NCBI GenBank assembly: GCA_964520865.1
Contig: CAZFOY010000002.1
Location: forward strand, 2,278 to 66,277
Length of the DNA stretch: 64,000 bases
Direction: 5' to 3'
Source: an uncultured Ignavibacteriales bacterium
GTDB taxonomy: Bacteria; Zixibacteria; MSB-5A5; GN15; FEB-12
Made by a program: the position numbers and the translations under genes. Positions 4,054-31,315 of the stretch are shown here, one piece after another. The notes beneath the pieces are model-generated. The model searched no databases, was not told the origin of the DNA, and worked only from the letters and a program-made list of their open reading frames with translations. Numbering within the stretch: the stretch's first letter is position 1; each line of letters begins with the position of its first letter.

Positions 4054-5270
4054 AAGAATTCAAAAACTTGTTGAAGGCGGCATTTAGAAGCCTGCTTAAG
4101 AACCGCATGCGGAGCCTGTTGACGTCGCTCGGTATAATTATCGGTGTCAGTGCAGTGATCGTTATGGTCGCGGTCGGGCAGGGGTCGCAGGCGCAGATTG
4201 AAAAAAGTATTAATGCCCTGGGCACGAACCTCCTGATTGCGTTTCCGAGCAGCGGGTCTTCCCGGGGCGTTCACTTCGGGGCGGGCACCCTCAATCGGTT
4301 CACCTTCAGCGATGTCGACAAGCTGCGTAAAGAAGCTACCTTGCTGCAAGCCGTATCTCCGGTAGTGCGTACCGGAGCCCAGGTGATCGGCGGCGGAACC
4401 AACTGGGCAACGGAGATCTATGGCGTGACGCCGGACTACTTCAGCATCCGCAATTGGGAAATTGACAAAGGTGATTTCTTCTCCGAGCGCGATGTATCCA
4501 CCAACAAGAAAGTGGCCGTACTGGGTGCAACCGTGGCAAACCAGCTCTTCCCGGAACAGGATCCGGTCGGACAGAGTATCCGCATCAGAAATATACCATT
4601 TACCGTGGTCGGGGTGTTGAAGGCAAAAGGGCAGAGCGGGATGGGGCACGACCAGGACGACATCATCCTGGCTCCCGCAACCACGGTGCTGTACCGCCTC
4701 AAGGGTGGACGCTGGATAGATATGATTAACGCCAGCGCCGTATCGACCAATCAGATGGACTCGGCGATGGCCCAGATGACGACGATCCTTCGTGCCGCGC
4801 ACCGTATTCCCGAAGGTGAGGACAACGATTTCACGATCCGAAGTCAGGCTGAAATTACCGAAGCTGTTACCGAGACTACGAGTACAATGACTCTGCTCCT
4901 CGGATCGATCGCGGCAGTAAGCCTGGTGGTTGGCGGTATCGGCATCATGAATATCATGCTCGTGTCAGTGACCGAGCGAACCCGCGAGATCGGTATCAGA
5001 CTCTCGGTTGGAGCAAGAGAGAGCGATATACTCTTCCAATTTCTGACCGAAGCGGTTGTTCTCAGTCTGGCCGGAGGACTGATCGGGATACTTCTGTCTG
5101 CCCTTGTTGTAGCCGGCCTCGGCCGGTTCACGCAGCTACACCCCATAATCTCGCCGCAGATCATCACGATTTCGGTGTTGTTTGCCGGAGCGGTCGGCGT
5201 TTTCTTCGGCTTCTACCCGGCGCGGAAGGCGGCGGCGTTGAATCCGATCGACGCCCTCAGGCATGAATAG
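4050..5270 (+). CDS. ABC transporter permease, MacB periplasmic domain + FtsX fold
   Basis: ATGA start/stop overlap with the ATPase gene. N-terminal TM, large periplasmic domain, C-terminal FtsX-type helices ([14 protein letters not shown]... [16 protein letters not shown]). Confidence 0.9.
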
Positions 5271-5291
5271 AGCGCTTCCGCGGAAAATTCT

Positions 5292-5329
5292 GAAGACTGT
5301 CCGACCTAAATTGGACAGTCTTTCTCTTT
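5292..5329 (+). terminator. Rho-independent terminator after the exporter operon
   Basis: gaagactgtcc / 10-nt loop / ggacagtcttt stem, followed by ctctttg. Confidence 0.6.
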
Positions 5330-5565
5330 GATCCCTACAGGGTTACAGCTTCTGTTCGGTCGGGCAGAAATTGCGACAGGCATACCTGCGAAACAACTCC
5401 ACCCGACCGTCGTATACTTAATCCAGAAATAGCAACTGGCTCCTATTTTGGATCCGGAGGGAATCTGCCCTCTCTGTGACTGTCACCTTACACCGGTGTT
5501 TATGAACAGCAGTATTCTGACTCGCTTAACTGGAGCCCCCAAAGCGAATATGCAGGAGTACGCCC

Positions 5566-7923
5566 ATGAATACCGTGAAGTTGATACGGGCAAGATTATT
5601 TGTTCTCTTATTCATACTAACCCTCATTCTGTCCGCGGCACCTGTTGTCCTGGCCACGAAAACGCCGGCCCCGGTTTTTAATCCCGAACTAACGGTAGCC
5701 AAGACCGCAAAAGCGATCAAGGTCGATGGAAATATCAGTCCTGCCGAATGGGCCGGAGCTGCCGAGATCTCCAATTTCGTTGAACGTTATCCCGGAGAAA
5801 ACACTCAGCCCGCGGTCGCTACACAAACTTTCGTTACTTACGACCGGGACAACCTGTATGTGGCATTCGTCTGTCACGATGATCCGGCGAGTATTCGGGC
5901 TACGATGTGCCAGCGGGACCAATTCAACGGCGATGATGATGTCTGTGTACTAATCGATACCTATGGGAAGGCGGCCTGGGCCTACGAGCTTCTCGTGAAT
6001 CCGTACGGAGTTCAGAAGGACCGACTCTGGACGCAAGTTGCAGGAGAAGACAGTGGTTTCGACATGGTCTGGGCATCGGCGGCCAAAGTAACTGATTCAG
6101 GATATCAAGTCGAGATTGCGGTCCCCTTCTCGAGCATGAGGTTCCCCAATCAATCACCACAATCGTGGAAGATGGATTTCTGGAGAAACCGGCCCCGACA
6201 AAGCTCGCACCAGTACAGTTGGGCGGCGTACAACCGTAACGAACAATGCTGGCCGTGCCAGTGGGGAGAGGTCAACGGGATTGGCGACGTCAACCCGGGG
6301 AAAGGGATGGAGATTCTGCCCACCTATGTTGCCCATCAGGCAGGTTATCTCAACGACGGCGGTGATCCCACTTCCGGTTTCCACGAAGGAGACGTGAGCG
6401 GCGAGCTGTCGCTGGGCGCAAAGTACTCGATCTCCTCGAATGCCACGCTCGAAGGTGCGTACAATCCGGACTTCAGCCAGATCGAAAGCGACGCGGCGCA
6501 GGTCGACGTGAACTCGACAATCGCCCTTTTCTACCCGGAGCGAAGGCCGTTCTTTCAGGAAGGATCCGATATTTTCCGTACGCTGTTCAACTCCTTCTAT
6601 ACCCGAACGGTCAACGATCCGCAGTACGCCACGAAATTCATTACCAGGACTTCCGACTACAGCATTGGCTTCATGTCCGCCGAAGACAAGAATACACCGT
6701 ATTTACTTCCGCTCGAAGAACGCTCAGTGCTGTTCAACAGCGGCAAGAGCTATGTCAACGTCCTTCGGGGGAGTCGAGCGATCGGCGCAGAATCTCGAAT
6801 GGGATTCATCCTTACGGATCGAAGGCTCGACGGGGGAGGGTACGGAACAATTGCTTCAGTTGACGGTCGTTTTCGCCTGACCCAGCAATACAGTGTCCTG
6901 GGCCAGTTCATATCGAGTTTTACCGGCGAACCGGACAAGGCAGGACCGAGCGCGGGGCTCGAAGGCGTCAAAATCGATCGGGGAAAGCGAACGGCAATAT
7001 TCGACGGCGAGTCGTTTCACGGCAACGCGCTGATCACGCAATTGCGCCGACAGGCCCGCGAATGGAGCTTCACGATTGATTACGATCAGGTTGAGCCGTC
7101 CTATCGCACGCTTACCGGTTATGACCCGTGGGTAGATTATCGCAACACGTTTGTCGGTACCCAGTATACCTTCTATCCGACCAAAGGGTTGTTCCAGCGA
7201 ATCCAACCGTCGATCAATGTCGATGGAAGATGGTTGTTCGACGGGACCCGGCGGTGGGAACACCAGTATCTAAACTTGTACACGCAGTTAAGATGGGCGC
7301 AGACCGAAGCAAGCATTTCCGTGTCGAGAGGATCCGAATCCTGGACAAGCGGCTACTCAGGGAATCTGATCGAGTACAACGGACTCGTTTCCGTCGGGTT
7401 CAATGCCGATGGTCAGTTCTCCAATGCGCTCGGATATCAGTTCAATCTGCAGAGATCCAAGGATGTCGCCCGATTTGCCGAAGCGGAGGGACTTCAAAAC
7501 TCGGTGGAAGTATCTCTGGGGATCAAGCCAGTCGACCGTCTGTTGATCGAACCGGACGTCAATTATGTCCGAAGCACGCACGCCGACAAGGGAAACGAGC
7601 TTTATCGCCAGTTCATTTTCCATACGCGGTTGAGTATGCAGCTCAATCGGCAGTTGTCGTTGAGGCTGGTGCTGCAGTACAATGATTCCCGCGCTGCCAT
7701 TTACACGGGCGAAGATACTCAGGGACCGACATATTATCACGCTTTGAACAAGTCGTGGGCGGTCGATCCGTTGTTGACGTATCGAATCAGTTCATTCAGC
7801 GTGTTGTACGCCGGAGCGACTCACCAGTATGACTTCTTTCCGATGAATGATCAGTTCAATTCGCAATGGAGGCTGGGTTCGCGTCAGTTCTTCCTGAAAC
7901 TACAGTATTTGTTCCAAGCATAG
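5566..7923 (+). CDS. secreted/outer-membrane protein with CBM9-like N-terminal domain and DUF5916-like beta-rich body
   Basis: AGGAG lies 8 nt upstream. Signal peptide present. N-terminal KVDGNISPAEWAGAAEISNFVERYPGE...LYVAFVCHDD resembles CBM family 9. The long aromatic-rich C-terminal region ends in F-Q-A, as outer-membrane beta-barrels often do. Confidence 0.65.
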   Translation: MNTVKLIRARLFVLLFILTLILSAAPVVLATKTPAPVFNPELTVAKTAKAIKVDGNISPAEWAGAAEISNFVERYPGENTQPAVATQTFVTYDRDNLYVAFVCHDDPASIRATMCQRDQFNGDDDVCVLIDTYGKAAWAYELLVNPYGVQKDRLWTQVAGEDSGFDMVWASAAKVTDSGYQVEIAVPFSSMRFPNQSPQSWKMDFWRNRPRQSSHQYSWAAYNRNEQCWPCQWGEVNGIGDVNPGKGMEILPTYVAHQAGYLNDGGDPTSGFHEGDVSGELSLGAKYSISSNATLEGAYNPDFSQIESDAAQVDVNSTIALFYPERRPFFQEGSDIFRTLFNSFYTRTVNDPQYATKFITRTSDYSIGFMSAEDKNTPYLLPLEERSVLFNSGKSYVNVLRGSRAIGAESRMGFILTDRRLDGGGYGTIASVDGRFRLTQQYSVLGQFISSFTGEPDKAGPSAGLEGVKIDRGKRTAIFDGESFHGNALITQLRRQAREWSFTIDYDQVEPSYRTLTGYDPWVDYRNTFVGTQYTFYPTKGLFQRIQPSINVDGRWLFDGTRRWEHQYLNLYTQLRWAQTEASISVSRGSESWTSGYSGNLIEYNGLVSVGFNADGQFSNALGYQFNLQRSKDVARFAEAEGLQNSVEVSLGIKPVDRLLIEPDVNYVRSTHADKGNELYRQFIFHTRLSMQLNRQLSLRLVLQYNDSRAAIYTGEDTQGPTYYHALNKSWAVDPLLTYRISSFSVLYAGATHQYDFFPMNDQFNSQWRLGSRQFFLKLQYLFQA

Positions 7924-7971
7924 CGACGGTCTTCTGTCGGCGAGGCAGAGGCAAGACCATCGTCGCGATTA

Positions 7972-7999
7972 GAGCGGGAGGCGAGTGGCTCTCCCGCTC
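7972..7999. terminator. GC-rich hairpin between convergent genes (GAGCGGGAG / 10-nt loop / CTCCCGCTC)
   Basis: Perfect 9-bp stem read directly from the sequence. No clear U-tract. Confidence 0.4.
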
Positions 8000-8025
8000 G
8001 TCCATTTCAGGTAAATCGACTTCTG

Positions 8026-19269: not shown

Positions 19270-19651
19270 CCCAACGCGCCCTTAAGGGCGTACTCAGATC
19301 CTTTTTCTCCACATATAGTTAGAAATTTCCCAAAGTCAATGTTGAGCTGAGTGCAATGTCTCCAAATTACTAATCTGATGCTTACCCTCGTTTAATTATT
19401 CCCTAACACAATAAGGGTTCTGTTGGGAAATCGTTACCAACATGCAAGCGCCGGAAAAACTTGAAAACGAAAACAGACCCGAAATCGAAAGTAGACAAGT
19501 ACAATATCCCCGTCGGTTATGTTGCGCACAGGCAAACGACCCGGACAAAGGATTGGTCAGACACGAAAACTAAAGGAAGAGGCAGATTTTGAAACACGAA
19601 TTAACCTCACAGTCACAAACTTTTCATCCCAAAACCAGGAGCAGAGAACAC

Positions 19652-20719
19652 ATGAAGAGAGTGATCACGATCTTCGCAATCGTCATCGGTTTGATGTCGG
19701 CGGTTTCAGTACACGCTGCGGATACCAAGGTGGGTGGCCGCATGTACGGTTACTGGATGCTTAACAAGACCGATGGAGCTGACAACTACAACAATTTTGG
19801 TCTTGATCGCGCCTATATCGATGTGAAGTCGAAACTGACCGAGTATACTTCCGCGCGGGCGACCATGGACCTGAAGCAGCTGGAAGGCTACGACGGCTAT
19901 ACGATGATTCTGAAGTACGGATACCTCGATTTCAAGCCAAAATTCGGTGAAGGTTGGGTAACTTTCAGGTTCGGTCTTCAGCCGACTCTCTATATCGACA
20001 ACATGCAGGACCTCTGGCATCGCCGCTATGCCCTGAAGGTAATCAGCGACAACAAAGAAATGCTGACCTCATCGGATCTCGGCGCCGGCCTCCTGGTTGA
20101 CCTGAGCAAAGACAAAAAGTACGGCTATGTTCAGGCCACCGTTTGGAATGGCGGTTCCTACTCGCACGTGAAAGACAAAAACAAGAACAAGAACTTCAAC
20201 GCCTTCATCCACTTGAACCCGGTTCCGACCAATGAAGACTGGAAGAAGTCGACGATTCTTGCCCAGGCGTATGTCGGTTCGCAGAATGTGGCGATCGACA
20301 GCGGCATGAGCGCCTCCGATGTGAAACAGAACCTGTTTGAATTCGGCGGCCTGCTCGCCTATCGGAACAGCTTCGATATCGGCGCCGACCTCAATTTCGA
20401 GACCAAAGGCATGGCTGACACAGCCGGCACGTATATGGACGTTAAGTCTCAGGGGCTGTCGTTCTTCGGCACTTTCTTCTTCCAGGATTTTGTCGACGAG
20501 GCCTCCCCGCTCCGGGACATCAACCTGTTCGGTCGTGTTGACAAATACGATCCTAATACCGACGTCGACAAAGACGGCGAAACGATGGTGGTAGGCGGCG
20601 TTGAGTGCGTTCCCGCCCCCGGCGTCAGAGCTTCGATCAGCTACCGGAACACCAGTTATCAGGCTGACAATGCGGTCAAGACAAAGACCTTCTACTTTAA
20701 CACGTTGGTGAAATTCTAA
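19652..20719 (+). CDS. porin-like outer-membrane beta-barrel protein (hypothetical)
   Basis: I prefer the internal ATG at 19652 (AGGAG 11 nt upstream). It gives a clean signal peptide, MKRVITIFAIVIGLMSAVSVHA/AD. Alternating aromatic/polar beta-strand pattern; ends in ...LVKF. Confidence 0.55.
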   Translation: MKRVITIFAIVIGLMSAVSVHAADTKVGGRMYGYWMLNKTDGADNYNNFGLDRAYIDVKSKLTEYTSARATMDLKQLEGYDGYTMILKYGYLDFKPKFGEGWVTFRFGLQPTLYIDNMQDLWHRRYALKVISDNKEMLTSSDLGAGLLVDLSKDKKYGYVQATVWNGGSYSHVKDKNKNKNFNAFIHLNPVPTNEDWKKSTILAQAYVGSQNVAIDSGMSASDVKQNLFEFGGLLAYRNSFDIGADLNFETKGMADTAGTYMDVKSQGLSFFGTFFFQDFVDEASPLRDINLFGRVDKYDPNTDVDKDGETMVVGGVECVPAPGVRASISYRNTSYQADNAVKTKTFYFNTLVKF

Positions 20720-20762
20720 TCGGAAACCAAGCCGAGCAGATGTGTAAAAAGTAAATGGACGG

Positions 20763-20806
20763 GCGGGGTTGAATCCATGCTACAATTCAGCCTCGCTCGT
20801 TTCATT
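20763..20806 (+). terminator. probable terminator after the porin-like gene
   Basis: 12-bp stem gcggggttgaat/attcagcctcgc (two G-U pairs on the plus-strand RNA), followed by tcgtttcattc. Confidence 0.4.
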
Positions 20807-20848
20807 CTATATCCCTCGGACTATTTCTACACTGATCTTAAGTTCTCA

Positions 20849-21346
20849 CTAACGAGATGACTTGACTTTGCCGCCGACAGGTACGGATCGAGCCAGCTCC
20901 TTTTCAATCAATGTCACCGCCCGCTCTACGGCATGCCGCACCGGGGCGGACATTTCAACTCCGGTTTCGAACGTGGCCGCTTCGATTCCGAAAAGTATCA
21001 ATTTTGTCGGTAGCGTCTTGAGCACCCGGCTCAGTTTGACGGCCTCAAGCAGACTGAAGAGGTGTGAGGACTGAGTATGCCAGTTGTCCGGCAAATCGGT
21101 TTCGCCGAGATCAATCCGATGAATAAACCCCGGCGGCATCGACGATCGAACGGCATCGACCACAATTACATTATCGAATTCCTGCCAGAGCTGAATGATA
21201 TCGGTACCATCGCGCGCCGTTTCCCGGAGACAGACTCCGGTGAGATTTCGGGTTTTGAGCTTTCGGACGATGGCAAGGCCGGCGCGGTCGTCCCCGCGAA
21301 ATTCGTTACCTATTCCAATGATGAGGGTCGAAGATGTGTGAGGCAT
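20849..21346 (-). CDS. [NiFe]-hydrogenase maturation endopeptidase
   Basis: LIIGIGNEFRGDDRAGLAIV motif. 165 aa. Directly downstream of the large-subunit gene. Confidence 0.85.
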   Translation of the reverse strand: MPHTSSTLIIGIGNEFRGDDRAGLAIVRKLKTRNLTGVCLRETARDGTDIIQLWQEFDNVIVVDAVRSSMPPGFIHRIDLGETDLPDNWHTQSSHLFSLLEAVKLSRVLKTLPTKLILFGIEAATFETGVEMSAPVRHAVERAVTLIEKELARSVPVGGKVKSSR

Positions 21347-21350
21347 ATGA

Positions 21351-22646
21351 CTAAGTCCTTTCCACGGTCAATTTCAGGAAGTGCGTTGCACAGGAGATGC
21401 AAGGATCGTAATTGCGGACGGCTTGTTCGCACTTCAGGGTGAGTTCTTCCTGGGGCAGGTCGATGAATCTCGTAGCAACCTCGCGAAGATCGCTTTCGAT
21501 CATCTTCTGATTCTGAGCGGTGGGGGGGACGATCTTGGCGGTTTGAATAACACCCCGATCGTCCAACGTATATCTGTGATACAGAATCCCGCGTGGAGCT
21601 TCCGAACATCCGCATCCGCGTCCGGATCGTGGCTGGATCTCGACACTCGGCTGCGCCGGCTGTTCGTACTTCTCGATAATCCTGATCGCATCCTCTACAA
21701 CCTGAGCGGTCTCAACCGCGCGAACGATTATCCCTTTGAACGGGTTCGTGCAGGTCTTCTTCAATCCCGCTTTGAGGGCCGCTTTCTGAACGTCGGGATA
21801 GAGCTGGTCAAAATTGAGATTGTACCGGGCGAGCGGACCTGTGAAGTACGCTCCTTTCCCTTTCAATCTGGAATGAAGCGCGTTGGCGTGCTTGATGTGC
21901 TCTTCTTCGAAGTAGATTTCGTATTCATCGATCGAGATATCCAGCCCCTTGTTAGAAACGACCCGACCTTCGTTAAACGGATATTCATCAGGATGGCGGA
22001 GGGCTACGAACTCGTAGTCACGGTCGATGTCGGGGAAGGGAAGGCCCGCGGCGAATTGAATCATCTCGTACGCAGCTTCCTGTGCCCATTTGAGCTTCTT
22101 AAGGAAGCCACGAAGTTCCTTCTGAGTTGGGGTCTTGTAGAATCCGCCAACCTTTACGTTGATCGGGTGAATCTCGCGGCCGCCCAGCAGGATCATGAGT
22201 TCGTTGCCGATCTTCTTGAGTTCGAGCGCTTTCTTAACTATCTCCGGATGTACCTGGGCGATTTGAATGGCATCCTCGAATCCGAGAAAATCCGGAGCAT
22301 GGAGCATGTACACATGGAGAACGTGACTCTCGATCCATTCACCGCAATAGATGAGCCGACGCAGGGCCCGAAGTTGTCCGTCGACTTTGGCGCCGAATGC
22401 CTGCTCCATAGCATGGACAGAACTCATCTGATACGCGACAGGGCAGATTCCGCAGATCCTGGCCGTGATATCCGGTGCTTCGTAGTAGTTGCGGTCGCGA
22501 AGAAAGGCTTCGAAGAACCGAGGCGGTTCAAATATCTTGAACTTCACCTCTTTGACTTCGTTCTCCTTGATTCGAATATGCAACGCCCCTTCGCCTTCGA
22601 CGCGGGCGAGGTAATCGACTTTTATTGTCTTACTGCTTTCTTTCAT
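21351..22646 (-). CDS. [NiFe]-hydrogenase large (alpha) subunit, group 3b-like
   Basis: N-terminal [10 protein letters not shown] and C-terminal DPCISCATH nickel-binding motifs with a short cleavable tail. 431 aa, the size of group 3 enzymes. Confidence 0.9.
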
Positions 22647-23415
22647 GGATCGTGCTTTCCTTCATAAAGGCGTCGGCATCCGCGTTGAACCCCCGAAATG
22701 TCCGCACCAGATCATCGGGGCTCATTCCGCAAAGTTTGAACCGTTCGGCGAGCGCTTCGGTGTTCGGCGTCTCTTTGGGACCGAAGCAACTGTAGCACCC
22801 ACGGTTATACGAGGGACAGATAGCGCCGCAACCGGCCTGCGTGACCGGTCCCATGCACAATGTCTGGTGAGCCACCATAACACAGGTATTGCCCCGGAGT
22901 TTGCAGTCGATACAAACGCTGTGTTTGGGGGTGACCGGCTTGCGCCGATTCAGAAACGCGTTCAGCACTTCAAGCAGCTGGTATTTGTTGATCGGGCAGC
23001 CGCGAAGTTCAAAGTCGACCGCCACATGGTTGGCAATCGGGGTAGAGTTGTTCAGCGTCTCGATATACTGAGGATGAGCGTAGACCGCACTTGTGAACTC
23101 GCGGACATCTTTGAAATTTCGCAATGCCTGTATCCCACCGGCCGTCGCGCAGGCGCCAATAGTGATGAGGAATTTGGAGCTCCGTCGGATCTTATGAATC
23201 CGCTCGGCATCATGCGGCGTCGTGATCGAGCCCTCCACCAGTGACACTTCGTATGGTCCGCGCATAACCGCCCGGGACGCTTCGGGGAAATTGGCAATAT
23301 CGATATGGGAGGTGACAGCCAGTAATTCATCCTCGCAGTCGAGCAGGCTGAGCTGACAGCCATCGCAGGAGGCGAACTTCCAGACCGCCAGTTTCGGTTT
23401 CTTGTCGCGATTCAT
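22630..23415 (-). CDS. [NiFe]-hydrogenase small (delta) subunit, group 3b-like
   Basis: ASCDGCQLS proximal-cluster motif and multiple Cys clusters. NuoB-like fold. Overlaps the alpha-subunit gene by 17 nt. Confidence 0.85.
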
Positions 23416-23418
23416 AGG

Positions 23419-24288
23419 CTACACCTCCCTCTTGTTGAAGAGGTCGCGGACGACGTCGAAACTGAACACCGGTCCGTCTTTACAGATAAACTTGGGGCCG
23501 AACTGACAGTGACCGCACAGTCCGATTGCGCATTTCATATTACGTTCCATCGAAACATAGATATTCTCAACCGGGACGCCTCGTTTCTGGAGCGCCAGGA
23601 CGGTATAGCGCATCATCACCTCCGGTCCGCAGATCATGGCGATGCAGCCTGAAGGGTCGAAACTTGTTCTCGGAATCAAGGTTGTGACAACCCCGACATT
23701 CCCGCGCCAGCCTTCATCAGCCCGGTCAACCGTAACCTCCACGTCCAGGTCGAACCGTGCCCGCCACTGCTCCAGCTCCTGGCGGAACAGGATATCCTGA
23801 GGTGTTCGGGTACCGTACAGCAATACCACTTTCCCGTATTTGTCGCGGTCGGCCAGAATTTGATAGAGGGCCGGACGAAGAGGTGCAAGGCCGATACCAC
23901 CGGTGATCAGCACGACATCTTTGCCAAGGGCCTTGTCGGTCGGCCATCCCGCACCGAACGGTCCGCGAATTCCAACCGTATCGCCAACGGCAAGGCGGCG
24001 GAGCGCTTTGGTGACAGCACCGACTGCTCTGACGGTATGAACGAGGGGATTCGGCTGGGTCGGATCACCACTTATCGAAATCGGGACTTCACCGACACCA
24101 TAGATATACAGCATATTAAACTGTCCCGGTTTGAATTCGAGGCCGTCAGAACCTCCGATTGCCGTCAGGTCGATCGTGAACGTATCCTCGGTCTCCTTGC
24201 GGACCCGCTGGATGCGATACATGCTGGGGCACATGGCGTCGAGCGCGCTTGTCCCCGATTTGCTTGGGGCTTTAGGGTTGTACGCCAT
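23419..24288 (-). CDS. hydrogenase gamma subunit, FAD/NAD(P)-binding oxidoreductase with C-terminal 2Fe-2S
   Basis: Ferredoxin-NADP reductase-like fold (GGIGLAPLR) and a C-terminal CAIGLCGHCQ cluster motif. Confidence 0.85.
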   Translation of the reverse strand: MAYNPKAPSKSGTSALDAMCPSMYRIQRVRKETEDTFTIDLTAIGGSDGLEFKPGQFNMLYIYGVGEVPISISGDPTQPNPLVHTVRAVGAVTKALRRLAVGDTVGIRGPFGAGWPTDKALGKDVVLITGGIGLAPLRPALYQILADRDKYGKVVLLYGTRTPQDILFRQELEQWRARFDLDVEVTVDRADEGWRGNVGVVTTLIPRTSFDPSGCIAMICGPEVMMRYTVLALQKRGVPVENIYVSMERNMKCAIGLCGHCQFGPKFICKDGPVFSFDVVRDLFNKREV

Positions 24289-24733
24289 AAATATCCAACA
24301 ACTGAATTCGCAGGGCCAGAAGTTCGTCCTCCATGAGGTGAACGAAGCGTCTCATGATTTCGTAGCCGAGTTCATGGTCTTCTTCGCACTTACGCCTCAG
24401 ACAGGCTCCGTCGAGTGCAATCGCACGCGTCAGTTCCATCGCGCGGCAGTCGAAGTGTCGAAGGTGCGGGGCGACCAGCCAGGACCATCCAAGGACGCTG
24501 CCTTCACCCAGCGTCTGAACGACAATGCCTCCCTTGTGCGGGCGAAAGACTTCCAGAGCAAGTCTTCCGTGACGGATGAAATAGAACTGATTTGCTTCAT
24601 CCCCCTCGTGAAATACATAGTCCCCTTCATCGAAACGGACGTTTGAGGCACAGCCCATCAGCAACTCGATATGTCGACTTTCCATCCCTTTGAGGAAAGG
24701 GTGTTCGGCCAGATACGGCTCAAGCGTTTGCAT
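24272..24733 (-). CDS. standalone cyclic-nucleotide-binding-domain protein (about 153 aa, no HTH)
   Basis: I start at the ATG at 24733 (GGAGG 6 nt upstream) rather than the track start. cNMP-domain pattern FLKGM...[22 protein letters not shown]...[12 protein letters not shown]...CRA. Overlaps the beta-subunit stop by 14 nt and the gamma-subunit start by 17 nt. Confidence 0.8.
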
Positions 24734-25901
24734 TCGGTACCTCCATAGACTCTGATCCTTTTGCCTGTCCTGCGTCCGTTTCACGGATCGCACGCAACTC
24801 TTCGGTTATATCGATGCCGACCGGGCACCAGGTAATGCACCGTCCGCAGCCTACGCATCCGGGGGTGCCGAACTGATCTATCCACGACGCCAGCTTGTGC
24901 GTCATCCACTGGCGGTAGCGGGCTTTGGCCGACGGTCTGACCGAGCCGCCGTGGATGTACGAGTATTCCATCGCAAAACAGGAATCCCATCTTCTGATCC
25001 GCTCGGCCGTGGAGCCGGACAGGTCTGTCAGATCCTCGACGGTAGCACAGAAGCAGGTGGGGCAGACCATGGTACAATTCGCGCAGGTGAGACATCGCCT
25101 TCCCACTTGATCCCAACGACGGTTGTCGACATTCCGATAGAGCAGTTCCTTCATGTCGGAAGTGTCGAGAGATCGACCCATCTGTGATGATGTTTCGGTC
25201 AGCTTCTGCGATTCCGTTTTCAACTGCTCCTCGGTTGCTTTCACCGCCGGCAGAACGTTCAGCAGCCTCCGCCCTGCGTCCGATCCGGCAGACGCGATAA
25301 AGTAGTGCGTTGTTTTGCTGTAGATCTCCGTGAGAGCAAGGTCGTATCCGTCCGAGGCCGAAGGTCCTGTCCCCATCGATGCGCAGAAACAGGTCCCACC
25401 CGCTCGCGTGCAGTTGACGACAATCAGCAGCAGATTGTCGCGCGTCCGCTTGTACAACGGATCGACGAATTCGCCCTGCATGAATATCTTATCCTGGATC
25501 TTGATCGCGGCGAGTTCGCAGGGACGAACTCCGAAAAAGGCAAGCTTTGCTGACGCTGCCTCGGGACGTTCCACTTCGAACCCGGTCTTTGTTCGTTTCA
25601 GGCGATTGATCTGCTGACGAGGGGGGAAGAGATAACGCTTCCAGGACTGGCCGCCCACCGTGAAGTCGAACGATGCCTTGTTCCCGGATGGTTCGAGCTT
25701 GTAGCTGGCCGGCTCCTGGCTGTCTGCCCAGCCCGATGGCAACGACTCCAGGGCGTTGATCTCGTCGAGCACGATTGCGCGCTCCCGAACGATCGGCCCG
25801 ATCACGCTATATCCTTCCGATTTGATAGCTGCCAAGAGTTTTGGCAGGTCATCACGTTCGATTATCAGCTTGTCTTTGGTTTTTCGAGTTTGGGGACTCA
25901 T
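24720..25901 (-). CDS. hydrogenase beta subunit, 4Fe-4S protein (AsrA/HydB-like)
   Basis: Two ferredoxin-type motifs ([16 protein letters not shown]; [12 protein letters not shown]). First gene of the beta-gamma-delta-alpha arrangement known from sulfhydrogenase-type enzymes. Confidence 0.8.
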
Positions 25902-25962
25902 TTGCTCTTCCGTTTTGTAAGGCCTCGGTTATCAAATCACCACAGGATCGAAAACATACATT

Positions 25963-25990
25963 AACTTATCTATGTTATCGGTATTGTCAA
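25963..25990 (-). promoter_or_regulatory. candidate sigma70 promoter of the hydrogenase operon (-35 TTGACA, 16 nt, -10 TAAGTT)
   Basis: Exact -35 hexamer at 25990-25985. Weak -10. Confidence 0.3.
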
Positions 25991-25999
25991 GGGAAATTA

Positions 26000-26015
26000 T
26001 GAGAAATATTTCACA
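26000..26015. promoter_or_regulatory. CRP/FNR-family-like palindrome TGAGA-N6-TCACA
   Basis: tgagaaatatttcaca is one mismatch from TGTGA-N6-TCACA. It abuts the -35 of the candidate hydrogenase promoter. Confidence 0.3.
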
Positions 26016-26286
26016 AAATGATTATGCTTCGGCAAATTAAAAGCGTTAATATACAATCGGTTACACGTGCCGTTCTTGTGCCGCCAACGACGATGTATTG
26101 TATGACATTTATCCTGACTGCTATCGGACCGGCGGCTCGGAATTCGGTCGACAGTGATCGAGATGATCTCGATGGCCCACATTGTCGTTATCAGATCGAC
26201 ACCGGGCGCCGCTCCTAATTGACAGGTACATATGCGTTTAGGAACATCTATCAGGATGGGTCGGGACTGGCGGTGTCAGTTTTGGG

Positions 26287-26314
26287 TTGCGGATAAGAGG
26301 GGATATGCTATATT
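26287..26314 (+). promoter_or_regulatory. candidate sigma70 promoter (-35 TTGCGG, 16 nt, -10 TATATT)
   Basis: Read directly from the sequence, about 90 nt upstream of the ATG at 26401. Confidence 0.3.
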
Positions 26315-26400
26315 TGAAAAGACAAAGAGACCAACCCTTTAGTACTCGCGATTTGTTCCGGGATCTAACCCGACTCTTAAACTGACTGGATTCGCAAATC

Positions 26401-27078
26401 ATGCTGATTTTGACACTTCGGCTTGCTACAGTTATGATCTCTTGTGTACTTCTGGCCGGCGCCGTTCTGGCAGCCGACGGCTATGTCTATCCGGATTCAG
26501 CGCGGATACTCTTCTCCTGGCAAACTTCAGGTGACACCATCACAGTTCAGCTGACCAATTCAGGAACGAGCCCGGTGCAGTTCAGCAGCATCACCGACAT
26601 CACCGAGGCAGATGTAACCACACTCCGATGTACTATTGATGGAACAGATATCACCCCGATCCCGGCTCTCAGCTTGTGGGGATCTATCTATCCGTCGAAG
26701 CTCTCCACAAGTTGGCAAACGGGTGCGTTTTCGCATTCCGCGGTTGTCAGGTTTGTTGCGCCCGGATACCAGCCGGGGAGTCTGAGTTGGATGGCGTTTT
26801 CGGACTATCCGATGTTCGGTATGGCTGATAGTGCCTTCGCACCCGGTGATTGCTGCGTCGGGTTGCGGGGAAACATTAACAACGATCCACTGGATCAGAC
26901 CGACATCTCCGATCTGATTTACTTTGTTGAATACATGTTCAACGATCCGCCCGCAGCGGCACCACCCTGTCTTGAAGAAGCAGATCTGACCGAGGACGGC
27001 ACGATTGACATCGGCGATTTGATCGCGTTAGTGGATTACACATTCGGAAAGGGACCGGATCTCCCGTCCTGCCCCTGA
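26401..27078 (+). CDS. secreted hypothetical protein with C-terminal dockerin-like duplicated EF-hand module
   Basis: Signal peptide ...LLAGAVLA/AD. C-terminal GNINNDPLDQTDISDLIYFVEYMF ... ADLTEDGTIDIGDLIALVDYTF gives two calcium-loop plus helix repeats. Confidence 0.6.
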   Translation: MLILTLRLATVMISCVLLAGAVLAADGYVYPDSARILFSWQTSGDTITVQLTNSGTSPVQFSSITDITEADVTTLRCTIDGTDITPIPALSLWGSIYPSKLSTSWQTGAFSHSAVVRFVAPGYQPGSLSWMAFSDYPMFGMADSAFAPGDCCVGLRGNINNDPLDQTDISDLIYFVEYMFNDPPAAAPPCLEEADLTEDGTIDIGDLIALVDYTFGKGPDLPSCP

Positions 27079-27198: not shown

Positions 27199-28929
27199 TC
27201 AGATCCTGAACTGCGCAACCATCTCCTTCATACCTTCGGCCTGTCGATTGAGTTCTTCGGCCGCCGCCGCCGACTGTTCAGCTCCAGTTGCAGTCTCCTT
27301 TGTAACCGAGGAGATGTGCTCGATATTCCGGGAGATCTGCTCGGCCGCAGAAGACTGCTCTTCGGTAGCCGTCGCGATCTGTTGAACCATATCCATCACC
27401 CGCTGCGACATCGCAACGATCTCGGTCAGACTGCCGCCGGCTTTGTCGGCGAGTTGACGACCATTGTCCACTTCGGTAATTCCTGCTTCCATGGAGTGAA
27501 CGGCATCGGTCGTTTCATTCTGGATCCCCTTGATCATGTCGGTGATCTCGCCGGTCGCTTTGCCCGTTCGTTCGGCGAGCTTGCGCACTTCGTCGGCAAC
27601 GACGGCGAATCCGCGGCCCTGTTCGCCTGCTCGGGCGGCTTCGATCGCCGCATTCAACGCCAGCAGATTTGTCTGGTCGGCAATGTCATCGATGACGCTG
27701 ATTATCTCGCCGATCTGGTCGGCCGATTTCGCAAGTTTGCCGATCGAGTCCGAGGAGAGGCGGACAACTTCGGCGATCCGCTGCATGCCGTGAATCGTAT
27801 CCCCGACAATCTGTCCGCCCTGGGTGGCGTTATCCGAGGCGTTCTTCGCGCCATCCGAAGCTTCGGAAGCATTCCGTGAGGATTCGACGATCGTCACGGT
27901 CATCTCTTCGACCGCGCTCGAGATCTGTCCTATCTGACCGGCCTGCTGTTGGGCTCCCTTGGACATCTGTTCCGAGGAGGAGGAGATCTCACTTGCCGCC
28001 GAAACCAACTGGGTGGCATTGTCATTCAGCTGGCGAACCATCTGTTTCAGATTCGTCGTCATCTTGTTCAGAGAAATAGCGATCTGGTCCTTCGCCGAGA
28101 TTGTTTCTTCGACCGCCTTAACCAGCGTGCCCACTTCGTCACTTGAGTACTTTCCTATCTTCACGATTTCCGATTGTCGGACCTGATGAGTGAGGTCGTT
28201 GGATGCTACCGCATCGACGACTCCGACGAAGTCATGGAACTCGGCGTTCATCTGGTTGCTCAGTTCCACTACCTTTTGAATCGGTTTCGAGATCCGTCGG
28301 GCAATGACCCAGCCGATGAGGGTGCCGACCACGAGCGCTACAATTCCGAGAGTCATGATCAGCTGGAAAGCGCTTGCTTCGTGATGTTCGGCTCCGACCG
28401 TGACGCTATCCAGTCCGTGCGATACTTTGGCCAGGACATTCTCCACCTCCGTATCGAAATTGTCGGCGTTCTTGAGAACTCGTTCGAAGAAGTCTTTGAA
28501 TTCGGAGTTGTCGTTGGACTTCTCCGCCATTTGTATCAATCGTTGGGCACTGTCGTCAAAAGTAGTGTAATCGGCTTCGAGTTTCTTGAGGGCATCGAGC
28601 AGTCCAAGCGAAGTCAGATTCTTGCTGCTCGCGATCATCGACTCGGCCTCATCCAATTCCTGTTTGAGTTCTTTTCCCTTTTCTTCGTAAGTGTTGAGTT
28701 CTTCCGGCTGCCGGTCGAGCAGGTATCCTCTCAAGTTGCTTTCCTGGGTGAGGGCCGCTGCCTCGGCGTTGGTGATTTTCTCGTTTAGCGGTACGTAAGA
28801 TGTAGCTATCTCGGTCACGGCGTCGCCGATGAGCCCCATCTTCCAGTCCGAGACGAGAATCGTGATTGCAAGTACTGCTAATACGAAGCAGAACCCGGCC
28901 AGGATTTTTCCACCGATCTTCATTTTCAT
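27199..28929 (-). CDS. methyl-accepting chemotaxis protein (2 TM, periplasmic helical sensor, HAMP, MCP signalling domain)
   Basis: Highly conserved signalling hairpin [35 protein letters not shown]. Confidence 0.9.
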
Positions 28930-29452: not shown

Positions 29453-31315
29453 CTACATCGAATTCAGAAATCCGACGAGATTGACCTGCTTATTGTTTAC
29501 GCCCAGCTTGTTTCTGATCTGCTGTCGGAATTTGTGTACCGTCAGAAGGGAGATATTGAGGGTGTTGGCAATATCCTTGGAAGAAAAGCCGCTCTTGATC
29601 ATCTTGCAGATCTCAACCTCGCGAGGGGACAGCTTGGCGTACTGCTTTTCAAGCCGGTTGATGAAAGGGGAAGTGATGTCATTGAGGCACGATTCGAGAA
29701 AGTGAAGGTATGATTTGTTGGTGTCATCGGCTCGTTCGTAGAGAGTCTGCAGAACGGGCACGATAAGCCGGTCGACGTTTGCCTGGATCTGACGCTTGAT
29801 CTGTTCTTTCTCGTCGCCGATCTGCAGCAGGATTTCCTTCAAAGCCGAGTTCTTTTCCTCCAGCACCTGTTCTTCCCGCGCAAGCTTTTCGTTGGTAGCC
29901 TGGAGTTCCTCTTCAATCTGCATGCGTGAAGTTATATCTCGGCACTGAAGCAGCGAATAGTGCTCCCGGTGGACCGTGATGGAGGTTACCGATGATTCGA
30001 AATCAACGAATTCTCCATTGGCATTCTCGCACCGCCAGATGAAATCACCTGCCCAGTCGCGTGATTCCGAGGCGGCGTTGAGCGCTTCCCGGGCGGATCT
30101 TCGGTCGCCGGGATGGACCCGTTTGACGAGAGCCTCGAGATCCGAGGGACAGAACCCGAAGAAGCTGAGGCAGGAGGGGTTGGCCATGAGGATCTTGCCT
30201 TGACTATCGATCATCACAATCATCTCCCGGGAATTATTGAAGATCAGCCGAAGTCTCTCTTCGCCCGTGCGCAGATGAGAGAGCTGTTCCTCCGTACCGG
30301 TAATATCCCTGAAGCCTGCTACAACGCCGGTCACGTGGGAGGCAACATCGTGAAGAGGATAGAGGACAAGTTCAAGGGTCCCGGCGGTTGTTCTTCCCAA
30401 CAGGCCGGTCGGGGATTGAAGCCGATGGATTTCGAGGTTCAGGCGAATACTCCTGCCTTCGTGAAAGACCTGCTCGACAGTTTCGTCGAATCCGAGCTCA
30501 TGGATCGCCTGATCGAGCAGGATATTGAAGCTTCGCTCGTTTTCACTGAGATTGAAGAACCGGACGCAGGCATTGTTCATCCAGACGGTGCTTCCGTCCC
30601 GGTCGGTAATGAGATACGGATCAGGAGCCTGTCGGAGGGCATCGACCGAAGCTTCGCCTTGAGGATCACTTGACGAAGTAGATCGACCAAGCAGGTCCGG
30701 GTGTTTTGAAAGGGAAGCAGCGATCGAGGAGACGAGCGTACGATCTAGGTCGGTCCAGGGCTCACCTTCGGTCGTCCTGACACAACCGACGATAGCGGAC
30801 AGGTTATCGCCGTCGCAGATGCCGGCGCAGATCACCGCTTTGGTCCCCCTCGTTTCCAAAATCGCCTTGAGCCCGAACGCTTCTTTCGGTAATTCGGTCA
30901 ATGATTCGAAAGCCAGCGTCCTGCTCTCCTCCAATCGGTCAACTATCCATTGAACCGTGGCCGCGGGCACCTGGTCGATACCGATGGCGTGTTTCTCGAC
31001 CGATGACTGATACCAGCCGTAAGTACGGTCGAAGAATCTCCCATCATCGGAGAGCTGAAAAATGAGGCACTTTTCGGATCTGGTCAGCGTACACAATTCA
31101 CGCAGAACGTTTTCGATGTGTGCGCCATTCGGGTGTTTCGACAGATCGAGCAGGGCGCTCGTAAGGTCAATGAGCCAGTTCTCATCGCACCGGGCGATGT
31201 CGGAGGCTGGAGCCGGGCTTGACTCCGGACCTCTCGTAAACTGCATCTTTTGAGAAACTCTCGGCTTTCTGTCCTTCGTCGTTGGCACTATTGAGCTTCC
31301 GCCTGTCTTGCGCAA
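29453..31315 (-). CDS. GAF/PAS sensor LuxR-family transcriptional regulator
   Basis: C-terminal LuxR/GerE HTH (LSPREVEICKMIKSGFSSKDIANTLNISLLTVHKFRQQIRNKLG). Upstream PAS-like repeats and a coiled coil. The track start is TTG; an ATG alternative lies at 31246. Confidence 0.85.
   Translation of the reverse strand: MRKTGGSSIVPTTKDRKPRVSQKMQFTRGPESSPAPASDIARCDENWLIDLTSALLDLSKHPNGAHIENVLRELCTLTRSEKCLIFQLSDDGRFFDRTYGWYQSSVEKHAIGIDQVPAATVQWIVDRLEESRTLAFESLTELPKEAFGLKAILETRGTKAVICAGICDGDNLSAIVGCVRTTEGEPWTDLDRTLVSSIAASLSKHPDLLGRSTSSSDPQGEASVDALRQAPDPYLITDRDGSTVWMNNACVRFFNLSENERSFNILLDQAIHELGFDETVEQVFHEGRSIRLNLEIHRLQSPTGLLGRTTAGTLELVLYPLHDVASHVTGVVAGFRDITGTEEQLSHLRTGEERLRLIFNNSREMIVMIDSQGKILMANPSCLSFFGFCPSDLEALVKRVHPGDRRSAREALNAASESRDWAGDFIWRCENANGEFVDFESSVTSITVHREHYSLLQCRDITSRMQIEEELQATNEKLAREEQVLEEKNSALKEILLQIGDEKEQIKRQIQANVDRLIVPVLQTLYERADDTNKSYLHFLESCLNDITSPFINRLEKQYAKLSPREVEICKMIKSGFSSKDIANTLNISLLTVHKFRQQIRNKLGVNNKQVNLVGFLNSM

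Follow-up and report, generated by a model that had tools for sequence, protein, structure and literature searches.

A conserved cyclic-nucleotide-binding-fold gene nested between the beta and gamma subunit genes of bacterial group 3b [NiFe]-hydrogenase operons

Introduction

Group 3b [NiFe]-hydrogenases occur widely among the bacteria of soil, sediment and wastewater. Their presumed role is either to convert excess reductant to H2 in hypoxic aerobes or to generate NAD(P)H from H2, and their archaeal operons have the order beta-gamma-delta-alpha. The enzymes are usually described as consisting of four subunits (e.g. PMC8115632). In the window analysed here, a stretch of DNA of 64,000 nucleotides, an operon of this type carries an additional small gene lodged between the beta and gamma genes whose product has a cyclic-nucleotide-binding (CNB) fold. 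What does a standalone CNB protein do inside a hydrogenase operon? A first-pass annotation of the window had proposed a fifth, ligand-sensing subunit or an assembly factor that couples hydrogenase activity to a nucleotide second messenger or a redox metabolite. In the literature searched, no functional study of the gene was found, and only PMC13332983 and PMC12319191 mention it in 3b clusters; both list its product in passing among the cluster genes and neither tested its function. In a proteome supplement for Nitrospira marina, the locus tags of hydB and hydG lie seven numbers apart and a CNB entry is absent, which makes the list uninformative on this point.

Results

The CNB gene occupies positions 24272..24733 on the minus strand and encodes a 153-residue, HTH-less protein with the family motif G82-W-S-W-L ... 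P89 ... R92-H-F-D-C-R-A. A GGAGG ribosome-binding site, read directly from the DNA, is located at 24740..24744 (minus strand) inside the end of the beta gene and is followed, after a 6-nt spacer, by the ATG at 24733. The gene overlaps the beta gene, which ends with a TGA at 24722-24720, by 14 nt, and its own TAA at 24274-24272 produces a 17-nt overlap with the gamma gene, whose ATG is found at 24288. Both the dedicated ribosome-binding site and the interlocking with the structural genes, as described in the first-pass annotation, were thus confirmed. The longest reading in the list of open reading frames comprises 173 residues and begins with a GTG at 24793. We prefer the 153-residue ATG start because homologues begin at M-x-T-L-E-P in alignments and because two independent public gene calls chose it. 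A total of 2823 homologues were found, the best 120 of which are 62-100% identical and about 153 residues long. Judged by the number and similarity of these homologues, the reading frame is a genuine gene and not a chance occurrence.

Domain searches yielded PF00027 (cNMP_binding) as the sole Pfam match, covering residues 32-118 with 55.1 bits at a gathering cut-off of 27.5, and no HTH family was matched in the Pfam search. NCBIfam models of CRP, NtcA and FtrB aligned with the sensor part only, at scores far under cut-off. The AlphaFold2 model (pLDDT 88.3, pTM 0.82) predicts N-terminal helices, an eight-stranded barrel (strands between residues 29 and 108), a short helix (109-118) and a long C-helix (120-148), that is, the barrel followed by B and C helices that characterizes the CNB fold. 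The protein terminates 5 residues past the C-helix in this model, leaving out an HTH domain. The earlier description of a CNB-only gene of about 153 residues therefore stands, as does the statement that its product is not a transcription factor, since the lack of an HTH excludes one of the CRP type.

All genes of the operon lie on the minus strand. The beta gene (24720..25901) encodes a HydB/AsrA-like protein of 393 residues with a 4Fe-4S dicluster domain (Pfam Fer4_22, E 9.1e-34) and NCBIfam matches to sulfhyd_HydB/ShyB and also AsrA, which fall under the equivalog cut-offs. On the other side of the CNB gene, the gamma gene (23419..24288) specifies a HydG/AsrB-like protein of 289 residues with FAD/NAD(P)-binding and 2Fe-2S domains (Pfam NAD_binding_1 and DHODB_Fe-S_bind; NCBIfam hydrogenase subunit gamma, E 3.1e-67, with AsrB/ShyC/HydG matches). 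It is followed by the genes for the small (delta) subunit (22630..23415, 261 residues; Pfam Oxidored_q6, NCBIfam ShyD/HydD) and the large (alpha) [NiFe] subunit (21351..22646, 431 residues; Pfam NiFeSe_Hases), whose translation contains both nickel-binding motifs, RICGIC and DPCISCATH. The last gene (20849..21346) encodes a hydrogenase maturation endopeptidase of 165 residues (Pfam HycI; TIGR00072, E 9e-33). In a PDB search, Pyrococcus sulfhydrogenase 1 ranked ahead of group 3c, 3d and 3a enzymes for both the alpha and the beta protein. Its alpha chain is the closest solved relative of the large subunit (9nez_D, E 1.8e-69, compared with 1e-54 for 3c and 1e-36 for 3d enzymes) and its beta chain that of the beta protein (9nez_B, E 4.8e-39), so the label "group 3b-like" given in the first-pass annotation holds. 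NCBIfam equivalog scores of the hydrogenase subunits are all far under cut-off, which places the enzyme in a separate bacterial branch.

Within positions 20400-26500, the sole promoter-like site on the minus strand is a weak sigma-70-like match (9/12) at 26021..26049, upstream of the beta gene, which we regard as a candidate only because the regional site count is not above shuffle expectation. The same scan found no promoter-like site directly before the CNB gene, and no minus-strand terminator was found inside the operon. We count both observations as support for a single transcription unit.

A survey of related group 3b loci, the check that the first-pass annotation had suggested, was carried out using one genome per species from many phyla, including Zixibacteria, Acidobacteriota, Bacteroidota, Chloroflexota, Planctomycetota, Actinomycetota, Pseudomonadota and others. 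Loci were located via the large subunit and thus independently of the CNB gene. Among 70 informative loci, the order beta-CNB-gamma was observed in 52 and CNB-beta-gamma in 6; the CNB gene was absent from the remaining 12. The beta gene adjoins the CNB gene in all 58 loci that carry it, and at both junctions, beta/CNB and CNB/gamma, the reading frames mostly overlap, by 4-29 nt. In one further locus, L096, which encodes a fused beta-gamma protein, the CNB gene is separate and lies upstream of the fusion. The six-gene order with its overlaps is identical in RefSeq plasmids of Burkholderia thailandensis and Rhodococcus sp. BH4. Far from being unusual, the arrangement is that of the majority of a large bacterial 3b sub-clade and is routinely annotated in RefSeq. 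In one large bacterial sub-clade of group 3b, the operon normally carries a member of the CNB family as its fifth gene. Members of the family share a length of about 150-165 residues, a G-W-S-W-L ... P-P motif, a C-terminal R-x-Q-L-L-D-x-Y-G and a beta-adjacent gene, and the window gene has all of these traits. Sequence comparison identifies a well conserved, unnamed family of which the window gene is one ordinary, already annotated member.

The 12 loci without the CNB gene are scattered over at least 6 separate places in the large-subunit tree. Four 3b loci of more distant relationship likewise lack the gene, and the CNB protein matched none of the chains of the solved archaeal enzyme (9nez, 9nf0, 9e15, 9e1j), the source of the reference 3b structures. 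Taken together, this indicates that the hydrogenase works without it. None of the solved hydrogenase structures among the PDB entries searched contains a relative, and a close relative is absent from the solved structures altogether. Columns or length differences in the beta, gamma, small and large subunits that track the presence of the CNB gene were sought, with nothing convincing found beyond one weak column each in the gamma and large subunits. Neither the 58 loci nor the 120 best homologues include a protein in which the CNB domain is naturally fused to beta or gamma. A 288-residue reading of the CNB gene in locus L073 was considered as a CNB-gamma fusion and rejected, being out of frame with gamma and frameshift-like.

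Median identity to the window protein is 46% for CNB, 50% for beta and 54% for gamma. Ratios of dN/dS range from 0.11-0.40 for the CNB gene, 0.15-0.38 for beta and 0.13-0.42 for gamma, values that are rough only because synonymous sites are near saturation (dS 0.9-2.8). From these comparisons, the CNB gene is under purifying selection comparable to that acting on the structural genes. Pairwise CNB distances correlate with large-subunit distances (r 0.78) and with gamma distances (r 0.74) about as gamma does with the large subunit (r 0.77), so that, by this measure, the CNB gene diverges in step with the structural genes. Mirror-tree partial correlations with CNB (gamma 0.33, beta 0.03) give a hint, on which we do not rely, that gamma rather than beta may be the closer co-evolving partner. 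The combination of absence from orthologous operons and relaxed selection, which the first-pass annotation had said would overturn its proposal, was not observed. Position, coupling, co-divergence and purifying selection fit a hydrogenase-linked protein of either kind proposed there, a fifth subunit or an assembly factor.

Discussion

With a probability of about one half, we favour the interpretation that the CNB protein is a non-catalytic, dispensable accessory or regulatory subunit docked on the NAD(P)-side module of the enzyme, where it tunes activity to a ligand or redox state. The CNB gene is usually translationally coupled to both beta and gamma. The physical association, partner, ligand and regulatory effect that we infer would be as follows. 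The CNB protein would dock on the NAD(P)-linked electron-transfer module formed by these two subunits, in a manner that may resemble the way in which the HoxI dimer binds HoxFU, the diaphorase of the soluble hydrogenase from Cupriavidus necator. There, its response to a small ligand or the redox state would tune the activity or the activation of the hydrogenase. This reading is supported by the conserved beta-adjacent position, tight junctions, neighbour-like conservation, co-divergence and apparent single transcription unit, as well as by the HTH-less fold, the non-canonical pocket residues and the HoxI precedent. Counting against it are the lack of CNB fusions and of tracking columns, the CNB-less operons, the existence of free-standing paralogues, and the low identity and differing gene context of HoxI.

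A bolder proposal, which we consider possible though on the improbable side, is that this protein is the first hydrogenase-bound representative of a class of CNB sensors that has so far gone unrecognised. Such sensors would combine a tryptophan-lined pocket and, in most members, Cys28, Cys111 and Cys116 with the perception of a signal other than a cyclic nucleotide, and would gate the hydrogenase post-translationally. The signal might be, for example, the NAD(P)H/NAD(P)+ ratio, another nucleotide or the thiol redox state; a bidirectional hydrogenase might be gated in this way in hypoxia or reductive stress; and paralogues in actinobacterial dormancy islands might share the sensing chemistry and act on other targets.

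It is unlikely that the CNB protein is instead a transient assembly or maturation factor for beta and gamma, absent from the mature enzyme, which would assist folding or cofactor loading (Fe-S clusters, FAD) or hold beta and gamma until the hydrogenase dimer joins. The conserved place between beta and gamma, the translational coupling and the co-divergence would fit such a helper equally well, repeated loss is typical of helper proteins, and every operon also contains a dedicated maturation protease. However, the CNB fold serves in ligand sensing and is not known as a chaperone fold, and in our survey the most conserved part of the protein is the pocket-lining motif (S84 100%, G82 95%, W83 88%), which argues for ligand or partner recognition at the classical site rather than for scaffolding. 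Free-standing paralogues, moreover, have no hydrogenase to assemble.

These paralogues, found in Streptomyces away from any hydrogenase, are 30-36% identical and keep the GWSWL motif, so the CNB family is not intrinsically a hydrogenase subunit. They reside in dormancy-type islands, which encode universal stress proteins (USP), CBS proteins, a GAF sensor kinase with a response regulator, a PNPOx-family protein, a Zn-alcohol dehydrogenase and a flavohaemoglobin/Rrf2 pair. USP and CBS genes also flank the hydrogenase operons of Burkholderia and Rhodococcus, and the window has genes for a methyl-accepting chemotaxis protein and a GAF-PAS-LuxR regulator a few kb upstream. Such surroundings would suit a free signalling protein, an HTH-less CRP-like sensor that is merely co-expressed with the hydrogenase and whose hypoxia or redox signal goes to a different partner, for instance a two-component system or transcription factor. 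We regard this as quite doubtful, since a diffusible regulator needs neither an overlapping place between two structural genes in dozens of phyla nor to stay next to beta in both gene orders, and the divergence of the CNB gene closely follows that of the structural genes.

The ligand pocket bears on whether the protein senses cyclic nucleotides. In an alignment with PKG, the canonical Glu, Arg, Thr and Ala correspond to W83, R92, H93 and F94, respectively. In 71/71 close relatives and in 88% of 59 surveyed family members, the Glu of the phosphate-binding cassette that contacts the ribose has given way to Trp (W83). His-Phe stands where Ser/Thr-Ala normally follows the canonical Arg, and the position of the Arg itself is occupied by Trp in 39/59 family members and by Arg in 3/59; the clade to which the window protein belongs keeps the Arg. 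The canonical cassette G-E-x-A ... R-[ST]-A is thus not found in the window protein; a conserved G-W-S-W-L / P-P-x-x-W motif takes the place of the canonical contacts, which makes cAMP or cGMP sensing unlikely. The degenerate pocket that the first-pass annotation had named, together with a missing interface, as evidence against its proposal is thus partly borne out. Judging from these residues, the ligand is probably not cAMP or cGMP, our best guess being a nucleotide (pyridine or otherwise) or a redox metabolite. The coupling to a cyclic-nucleotide second messenger suggested earlier is correspondingly weak. A true cAMP or cGMP receptor, at least in the clade of the window, that ties hydrogenase activity to such a messenger would be in line with the Pfam cNMP_binding score far over threshold, with the Arg at R92 in the window protein and 28/71 close relatives, and with the existence of functional CNB domains that lack the canonical Glu, such as Epac. 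The family-wide replacements nevertheless make ancestral cNMP binding unlikely, and we judge this possibility to be very slim.

The 71 closest relatives all have the three cysteines C28, C111 and C116, and H120 is nearly invariant among them. In the AlphaFold2 topology C28 comes before strand 1 and C111 after strand 8, and the two are probably close in the predicted model because strands 1 and 8 pair in the jelly-roll. Their presence tends to go together across the 59 survey sequences, of which 41 have both, 14 have neither and 4 have only one. In roughly a quarter of the hydrogenase-linked members, Rhodococcus among them, these cysteines are missing, and position 120 is His or Pro; an Fe-S cluster or 3Cys+His site, which we had considered, is weakened by both observations. 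The least probable of all readings is a thiol redox switch or metal site formed by Cys28, Cys111 and Cys116 near the hinge between barrel and C-terminal helices, with the classical pocket merely structural: the invariance, co-occurrence and predicted proximity of the cysteines would agree with it, whereas their loss in some members and the lack of conservation of H120 speak against it, and the co-variation of C28 and C111 may reflect shared ancestry.

If the CNB protein is a regulatory subunit, as we favour, the direction, cofactor preference or activation of 3b enzymes in most bacteria would be under a control that current models ignore. This would bear on H2 fluxes read from genomes and on the use of these enzymes for cofactor regeneration. 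The CNB family also represents a tractable case of a cyclic-nucleotide-binding fold that may have been repurposed for another signal.

Comparison with known systems

The best Foldseek matches of the CNB protein (E about 1e-11, TM 0.72-0.81, identity 14-24%) include the sensor domains of CRP/FNR regulators (M. tuberculosis CRP, GlxR, P. aeruginosa DNR) and standalone CNB proteins of unknown function (PDB 3mdp, 3gyd, 5d1i). The long C-helix is shared with CRP, where it forms the dimer interface. Unlike CRP/FNR regulators, however, the CNB protein has no DNA-binding domain and its pocket residues are non-canonical. An enzyme-regulatory CNB protein that does not use cAMP is provided by the trypanosome PKA regulatory subunit ("cAMP-independent protein kinase A", PDB 6ftf, 6hyi, 6h4g). 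According to the entry titles, one of these structures is a complex with inosine, which illustrates that a CNB pocket can be repurposed for other nucleosides. This protein is eukaryotic, regulates a kinase and has tandem CNB domains, so the likeness is at the level of the fold only (22-23% identity). Among hydrogenases, the reference 3b enzyme, archaeal sulfhydrogenase I of Pyrococcus furiosus and Thermococcus kodakarensis, has the same set of structural subunits as the window enzyme.

A CNB-only hydrogenase subunit is not without precedent. The NAD+-reducing soluble hydrogenase of C. necator H16 (group 3d) has the composition HoxHYFUI2, in which HoxI is a CNB-domain subunit (PMC3189943). Like the CNB protein, HoxI (167 residues) consists of a cNMP_binding domain only, lacks an HTH and is encoded in the operon of a cytoplasmic group 3 [NiFe]-hydrogenase. 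HoxI characteristically co-purifies as a dimer with its enzyme, on which it confers activation by NADPH. Its cassette is likewise non-canonical, reading G-E-L ... H-S-L in place of R-S/T-A, but keeps the Glu that is Trp in the CNB family. The two proteins share 23% identity over 110 residues (BLASTP, 34 bits), animal PKG CNB domains match the CNB protein as well or better (phmmer, 39.5 bits), and a tblastn search of plasmids with the window protein did not find HoxI at E 1e-3. Orthology was therefore rejected, and the CNB gene should be viewed as analogous to HoxI. PMC12319191 names the CNB gene of 3b clusters HoxI and describes it with the NADP binding of the C. necator protein, which is believed to provide an NADP(H) site (Burgdorf et al. 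2005, as cited there). The genomic settings differ as well, the HoxI gene following the protease gene hoxW and the CNB gene lying between AsrA-like beta and AsrB-like gamma. So do the neighbours: HoxFU, the diaphorase partner of HoxI, is related to peripheral-arm subunits of Complex I (PMC3189943), whereas those of the CNB protein are AsrA/AsrB-like. HoxI leaves HoxFU at high ionic strength, being lost at 150 mM KCl and pH 8. It is an accessory subunit that binds loosely to the NAD(P)-side module and is dispensable for core catalysis (PMC3189943), much as we envisage for the CNB protein of group 3b enzymes.

Results and discussion

Direct reading of the minus strand of the window yields a 153-codon gene for a protein with a cyclic-nucleotide-binding (CNB) fold, running from the ATG at 24733 to the TAA at 24274-24272, with a GGAGG motif at 24744-24740, six bases before the ATG. 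On this strand it shares 14 nt with the 3' end of the beta gene (25901..24720, 393 aa, stop TGA at 24722-24720) and 17 nt with the start of the gamma gene (24288..23419, 289 aa, ATG at 24288). A mechanical ORF list offers a longer alternative start, GTG at 24793; the aligned N-terminus of CNB homologues, M-x-T-L-E-P, matches the 153-aa start, and two independent gene predictions in public records of the identical protein also use it. The sole Pfam match of the protein was cNMP_binding, which scored 55.1 bits where the cut-off is 27.5; no domain for DNA binding was among the Pfam results. Domain-family searches identified beta as a HydB/AsrA-like 4Fe-4S protein and gamma as a HydG/AsrB-like FAD/NAD(P) protein with a 2Fe-2S domain, the other operon genes encoding a hydrogenase small subunit, large subunit and maturation endopeptidase. 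The nearest solved relatives of beta and the large subunit are the beta (E 4.8e-39) and alpha (E 1.8e-69) subunits of Pyrococcus sulfhydrogenase 1, the latter match lying well above those to group 3c Mvh (1e-54), group 3d (1e-36) and F420-reducing enzymes, and the translated large subunit contains RICGIC and DPCISCATH. Neither a promoter-like site directly upstream of the CNB gene nor a minus-strand terminator within the hydrogenase cluster was found. Since strand reading, domain searches, solved relatives and the promoter and terminator scan agree, every element observed in the first-pass annotation is borne out, namely the ORF, its ribosome-binding site, both overlaps, the lack of an HTH and the group 3b-like operon.

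A few kb upstream of the operon, also on the minus strand, lie genes for a methyl-accepting chemotaxis protein (27199-28929; 4HB_MCP/CHASE3/HAMP/MCPsignal) and a GAF-PAS-PAS-LuxR(GerE) regulator (29453-31315), which is a candidate for controlling transcription of the hydrogenase operon. Two flanking plus-strand ORFs had no Pfam match: one (26401-27078, 225 aa) has a signal-like N-terminus and two C-terminal dockerin-like D-x-D-x-x-I repeats, the other (19589-20719, 376 aa) resembles an outer-membrane beta-barrel by eye.

A sequence search detected 2823 homologues of the CNB protein, the best 120 being 62-100% identical, nearly all 150-160 aa long and derived from Zixibacteria, Brocadia, Bacteroidota, Blastocatellia, Ignavibacteriaceae and others. 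To avoid circularity, gene order was surveyed starting from the large subunit. Diverse representatives were collected by a whole-library search, and an alignment of 69 was scanned against one genome per species, yielding 584 relatives of which the best 80 (48-69% identity) were kept. The six window proteins of the operon were compared with these loci by tblastn, and the 70 loci with both beta and gamma were counted. The order was beta-CNB-gamma in 52 and CNB-beta-gamma in six, all from a single clade of Planctomycetota and Chloroflexota; in 12, the CNB gene was missing within 8 kb and beta was joined straight to gamma. The arrangement is thus no oddity of the window, as 58 of 70 related loci (83%), representing one 3b sub-clade, carry the gene. 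Overlaps prevail in the 52 beta-CNB-gamma loci (typically -4 to -29 nt for beta/CNB and -4 to -23 nt for CNB/gamma), and RefSeq annotation gives the identical six-gene order with overlaps on plasmids of Burkholderia thailandensis and Rhodococcus sp. BH4.

The CNB gene was not found in four informative, more distant loci (large subunit 37-45% identical), and its product matched none of the chains in the solved entries for archaeal sulfhydrogenase. It was likewise not found in Mycobacterium loci L067, L072 and L075, agreeing with the annotation of M. smegmatis MSMEG_3931-3927 as four subunits plus protease (PMC2799521). The 12 CNB-less loci are scattered over at least six separate places of a neighbour-joining large-subunit tree. 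Judged from these sequences, the simplest history would be a single gain in the bacterial 3b sub-clade, then repeated loss.

Individual loci showed further deviations. In a metagenomic 3b locus (L096:376-2810, large subunit 46% identical), beta and gamma are fused into one 653-aa protein, with a 159-aa CNB gene directly upstream overlapping by 7 nt. The hydB and hydG tags of Nitrospira marina Nb-295 (LX98DRAFT_2930 and LX98DRAFT_2937; supplement of PMC8115632) are seven numbers apart, so several genes appear to lie between them and beta-gamma adjacency is not universal in bacterial 3b loci. Small- and large-subunit genes are 3.3 kb apart in Ca. Brocadia sp. AMX1 (L005), where an 849-aa repeat-rich opposite-strand ORF (4833-7382), by eye resembling a secreted or surface protein, lies between them, and are separated by a gap of about 3 kb (about 4937 to 8001) in a Bryobacteraceae locus (L027). 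Probable assembly frameshifts split gamma into 106-aa and 96-aa pieces (L092:1148-1858) and extend a CNB ORF to 288 aa, out of the gamma frame (L073:5870-6736).

Across the survey loci, median identities to the corresponding window proteins were 46% (CNB), 50% (beta), 54% (gamma), 65% (small subunit), 58% (large subunit) and 36% (protease). For nine closer pairs, dN/dS was 0.11-0.40 for CNB, 0.15-0.38 for beta and 0.13-0.42 for gamma, values that are rough because synonymous sites are close to saturation. Pairwise CNB distances follow the large-subunit distances (correlation 0.78) and the gamma distances (0.74) as closely as gamma follows the large subunit (0.77). Because all three measures match the structural genes, they indicate that the CNB gene is inherited along with the operon and that selection is not relaxed. 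Absence from orthologous operons combined with relaxed selection, which the first-pass annotation had set against its own proposal, is therefore not what the 58 loci and the CNB dN/dS range display.

An AlphaFold2 model built from a 71-sequence alignment was confident (pLDDT 88.3, pTM 0.82). In it, helices at the N-terminus precede a barrel of eight strands (29-108), after which come a short helix (109-118) and a long, hydrophobic C-helix (120-148). The best Foldseek matches were CRP of M. tuberculosis, GlxR and DNR, in each case the sensor domain, together with standalone CNB proteins without assigned function (3mdp, 3gyd, 5d1i), at TM 0.72-0.81 and 14-24% identity; no hydrogenase-related structure was among them.

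In the best-supported model, to which we assign a probability of about one half, the protein would serve the NAD(P) side of the enzyme as an accessory or regulatory subunit without catalytic function. The model draws on the adjacency of the CNB gene to beta, kept in either gene order, on its translational coupling with beta and gamma, on co-divergence and purifying selection, and on a sensor fold without output domain. The protein would bind the beta/gamma module and may dimerise via its C-helix, by analogy with CRP and with HoxI in HoxHYFUI2, and pocket occupancy would alter the enzyme's activity, its activation or its use of cofactors. The repeated losses, the lack of any CNB fusion to beta or gamma in the survey, the lack of beta, gamma, small- or large-subunit columns convincingly tracking CNB presence, and free-standing paralogues in Streptomyces all speak against a subunit that is tightly bound and obligatory. 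A transient assembly factor, the other role raised in the first-pass annotation, is unlikely, at about one in six, and a free signalling protein merely co-expressed with the hydrogenase is slightly more doubtful still.

The paralogues occur on Streptomyces plasmids (L087:5977-6429, L088:5992-6438, L002:5971-6408) at 30-36% identity, keep the GWSWL..PP..W motif and have no adjoining hydrogenase. They sit in dormancy/hypoxia-type islands that also encode universal stress proteins, a CBS protein, a response regulator together with a GAF sensor kinase, a PNPOx-family protein, a Zn-alcohol dehydrogenase, a flavohaemoglobin/Rrf2 pair and glucose-6-phosphate dehydrogenase. Universal stress and CBS genes also flank the Burkholderia and Rhodococcus hydrogenase operons.

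HMMER alignment to PKG revealed a non-canonical phosphate-binding cassette. W83 takes the place of the ribose-binding Glu, R92 (24458-24460, minus strand) that of the phosphate-binding Arg, and H93-F94 that of the Thr-Ala after it. Of the 59 family members surveyed, 39 carry Trp at the Arg position and three carry Arg; conservation within the protein is highest in G82-W83-S84-W85-L86 ... P89 (G 95%, W 88%, S 100%). Positions 92 and 96 (C96, 24446-24448, minus strand) co-vary almost perfectly in the 71 closest relatives, with two pocket sub-types: 41 sequences are W92/A96, and 28, among them the window protein, are R92/C96. These substitutions make the proposed coupling to a cyclic-nucleotide second messenger unlikely, and a genuine cNMP receptor, even if confined to the R92 clade, is improbable. 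The pocket does not look like a decayed site; its conserved, aromatic-rich character suggests a non-cyclic-nucleotide ligand or a protein-contact surface. Such repurposing of the fold occurs: the regulatory subunit of trypanosome PKA, likewise a CNB fold, carries the description cAMP-independent, and one of its structures is a complex with inosine. Least probable of all is a thiol or metal switch on C28 (24650-24652), C111 (24401-24403) and C116 (24386-24388; all minus strand), which are invariant in the 71 closest relatives, C28 and C111 being co-retained or co-lost in the 59 survey sequences (41 both, 14 neither, 4 one only), but missing in about a quarter of hydrogenase-linked members, a pattern compatible with a thiol switch, with a metal site or with nothing more than common descent.

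Comparison with known systems

The CNB gene is real and conserved, but neither rare nor previously unnoticed. Two recent papers list it in the group 3b clusters of R. equi 103S (WP_013415449.1; PMC13332983) and 'M. acidophilus' 29, where it is named HoxI (PMC12319191); a four-subunit description of group 3b enzymes is still used in PMC8115632. We found no functional or structural study of the gene in the literature searched and no solved structure with a close relative. The gene itself will not surprise a specialist; given its 83% presence, clean repeated losses, Trp-rich pocket and paralogues in dormancy islands, the survey sharpens a testable question, namely the fifth protein's effect on a bidirectional hydrogenase.

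The precedent for the subunit model is HoxI of Cupriavidus necator, a CNB-only protein within the soluble hydrogenase HoxHYFUI2. It is released from the HoxFU diaphorase by higher ionic strength and alkaline pH (PMC3189943) and is thought to give an NADP(H) site (PMC12319191, citing Burgdorf et al. 2005). It is only 23% identical to the window protein and no closer to it than PKG. Its gene follows the protease gene instead of lying between beta and gamma, its partner is a different diaphorase type, and its cassette deviates otherwise, with Glu kept and His in place of Arg. The analogy is therefore functional rather than genealogical.
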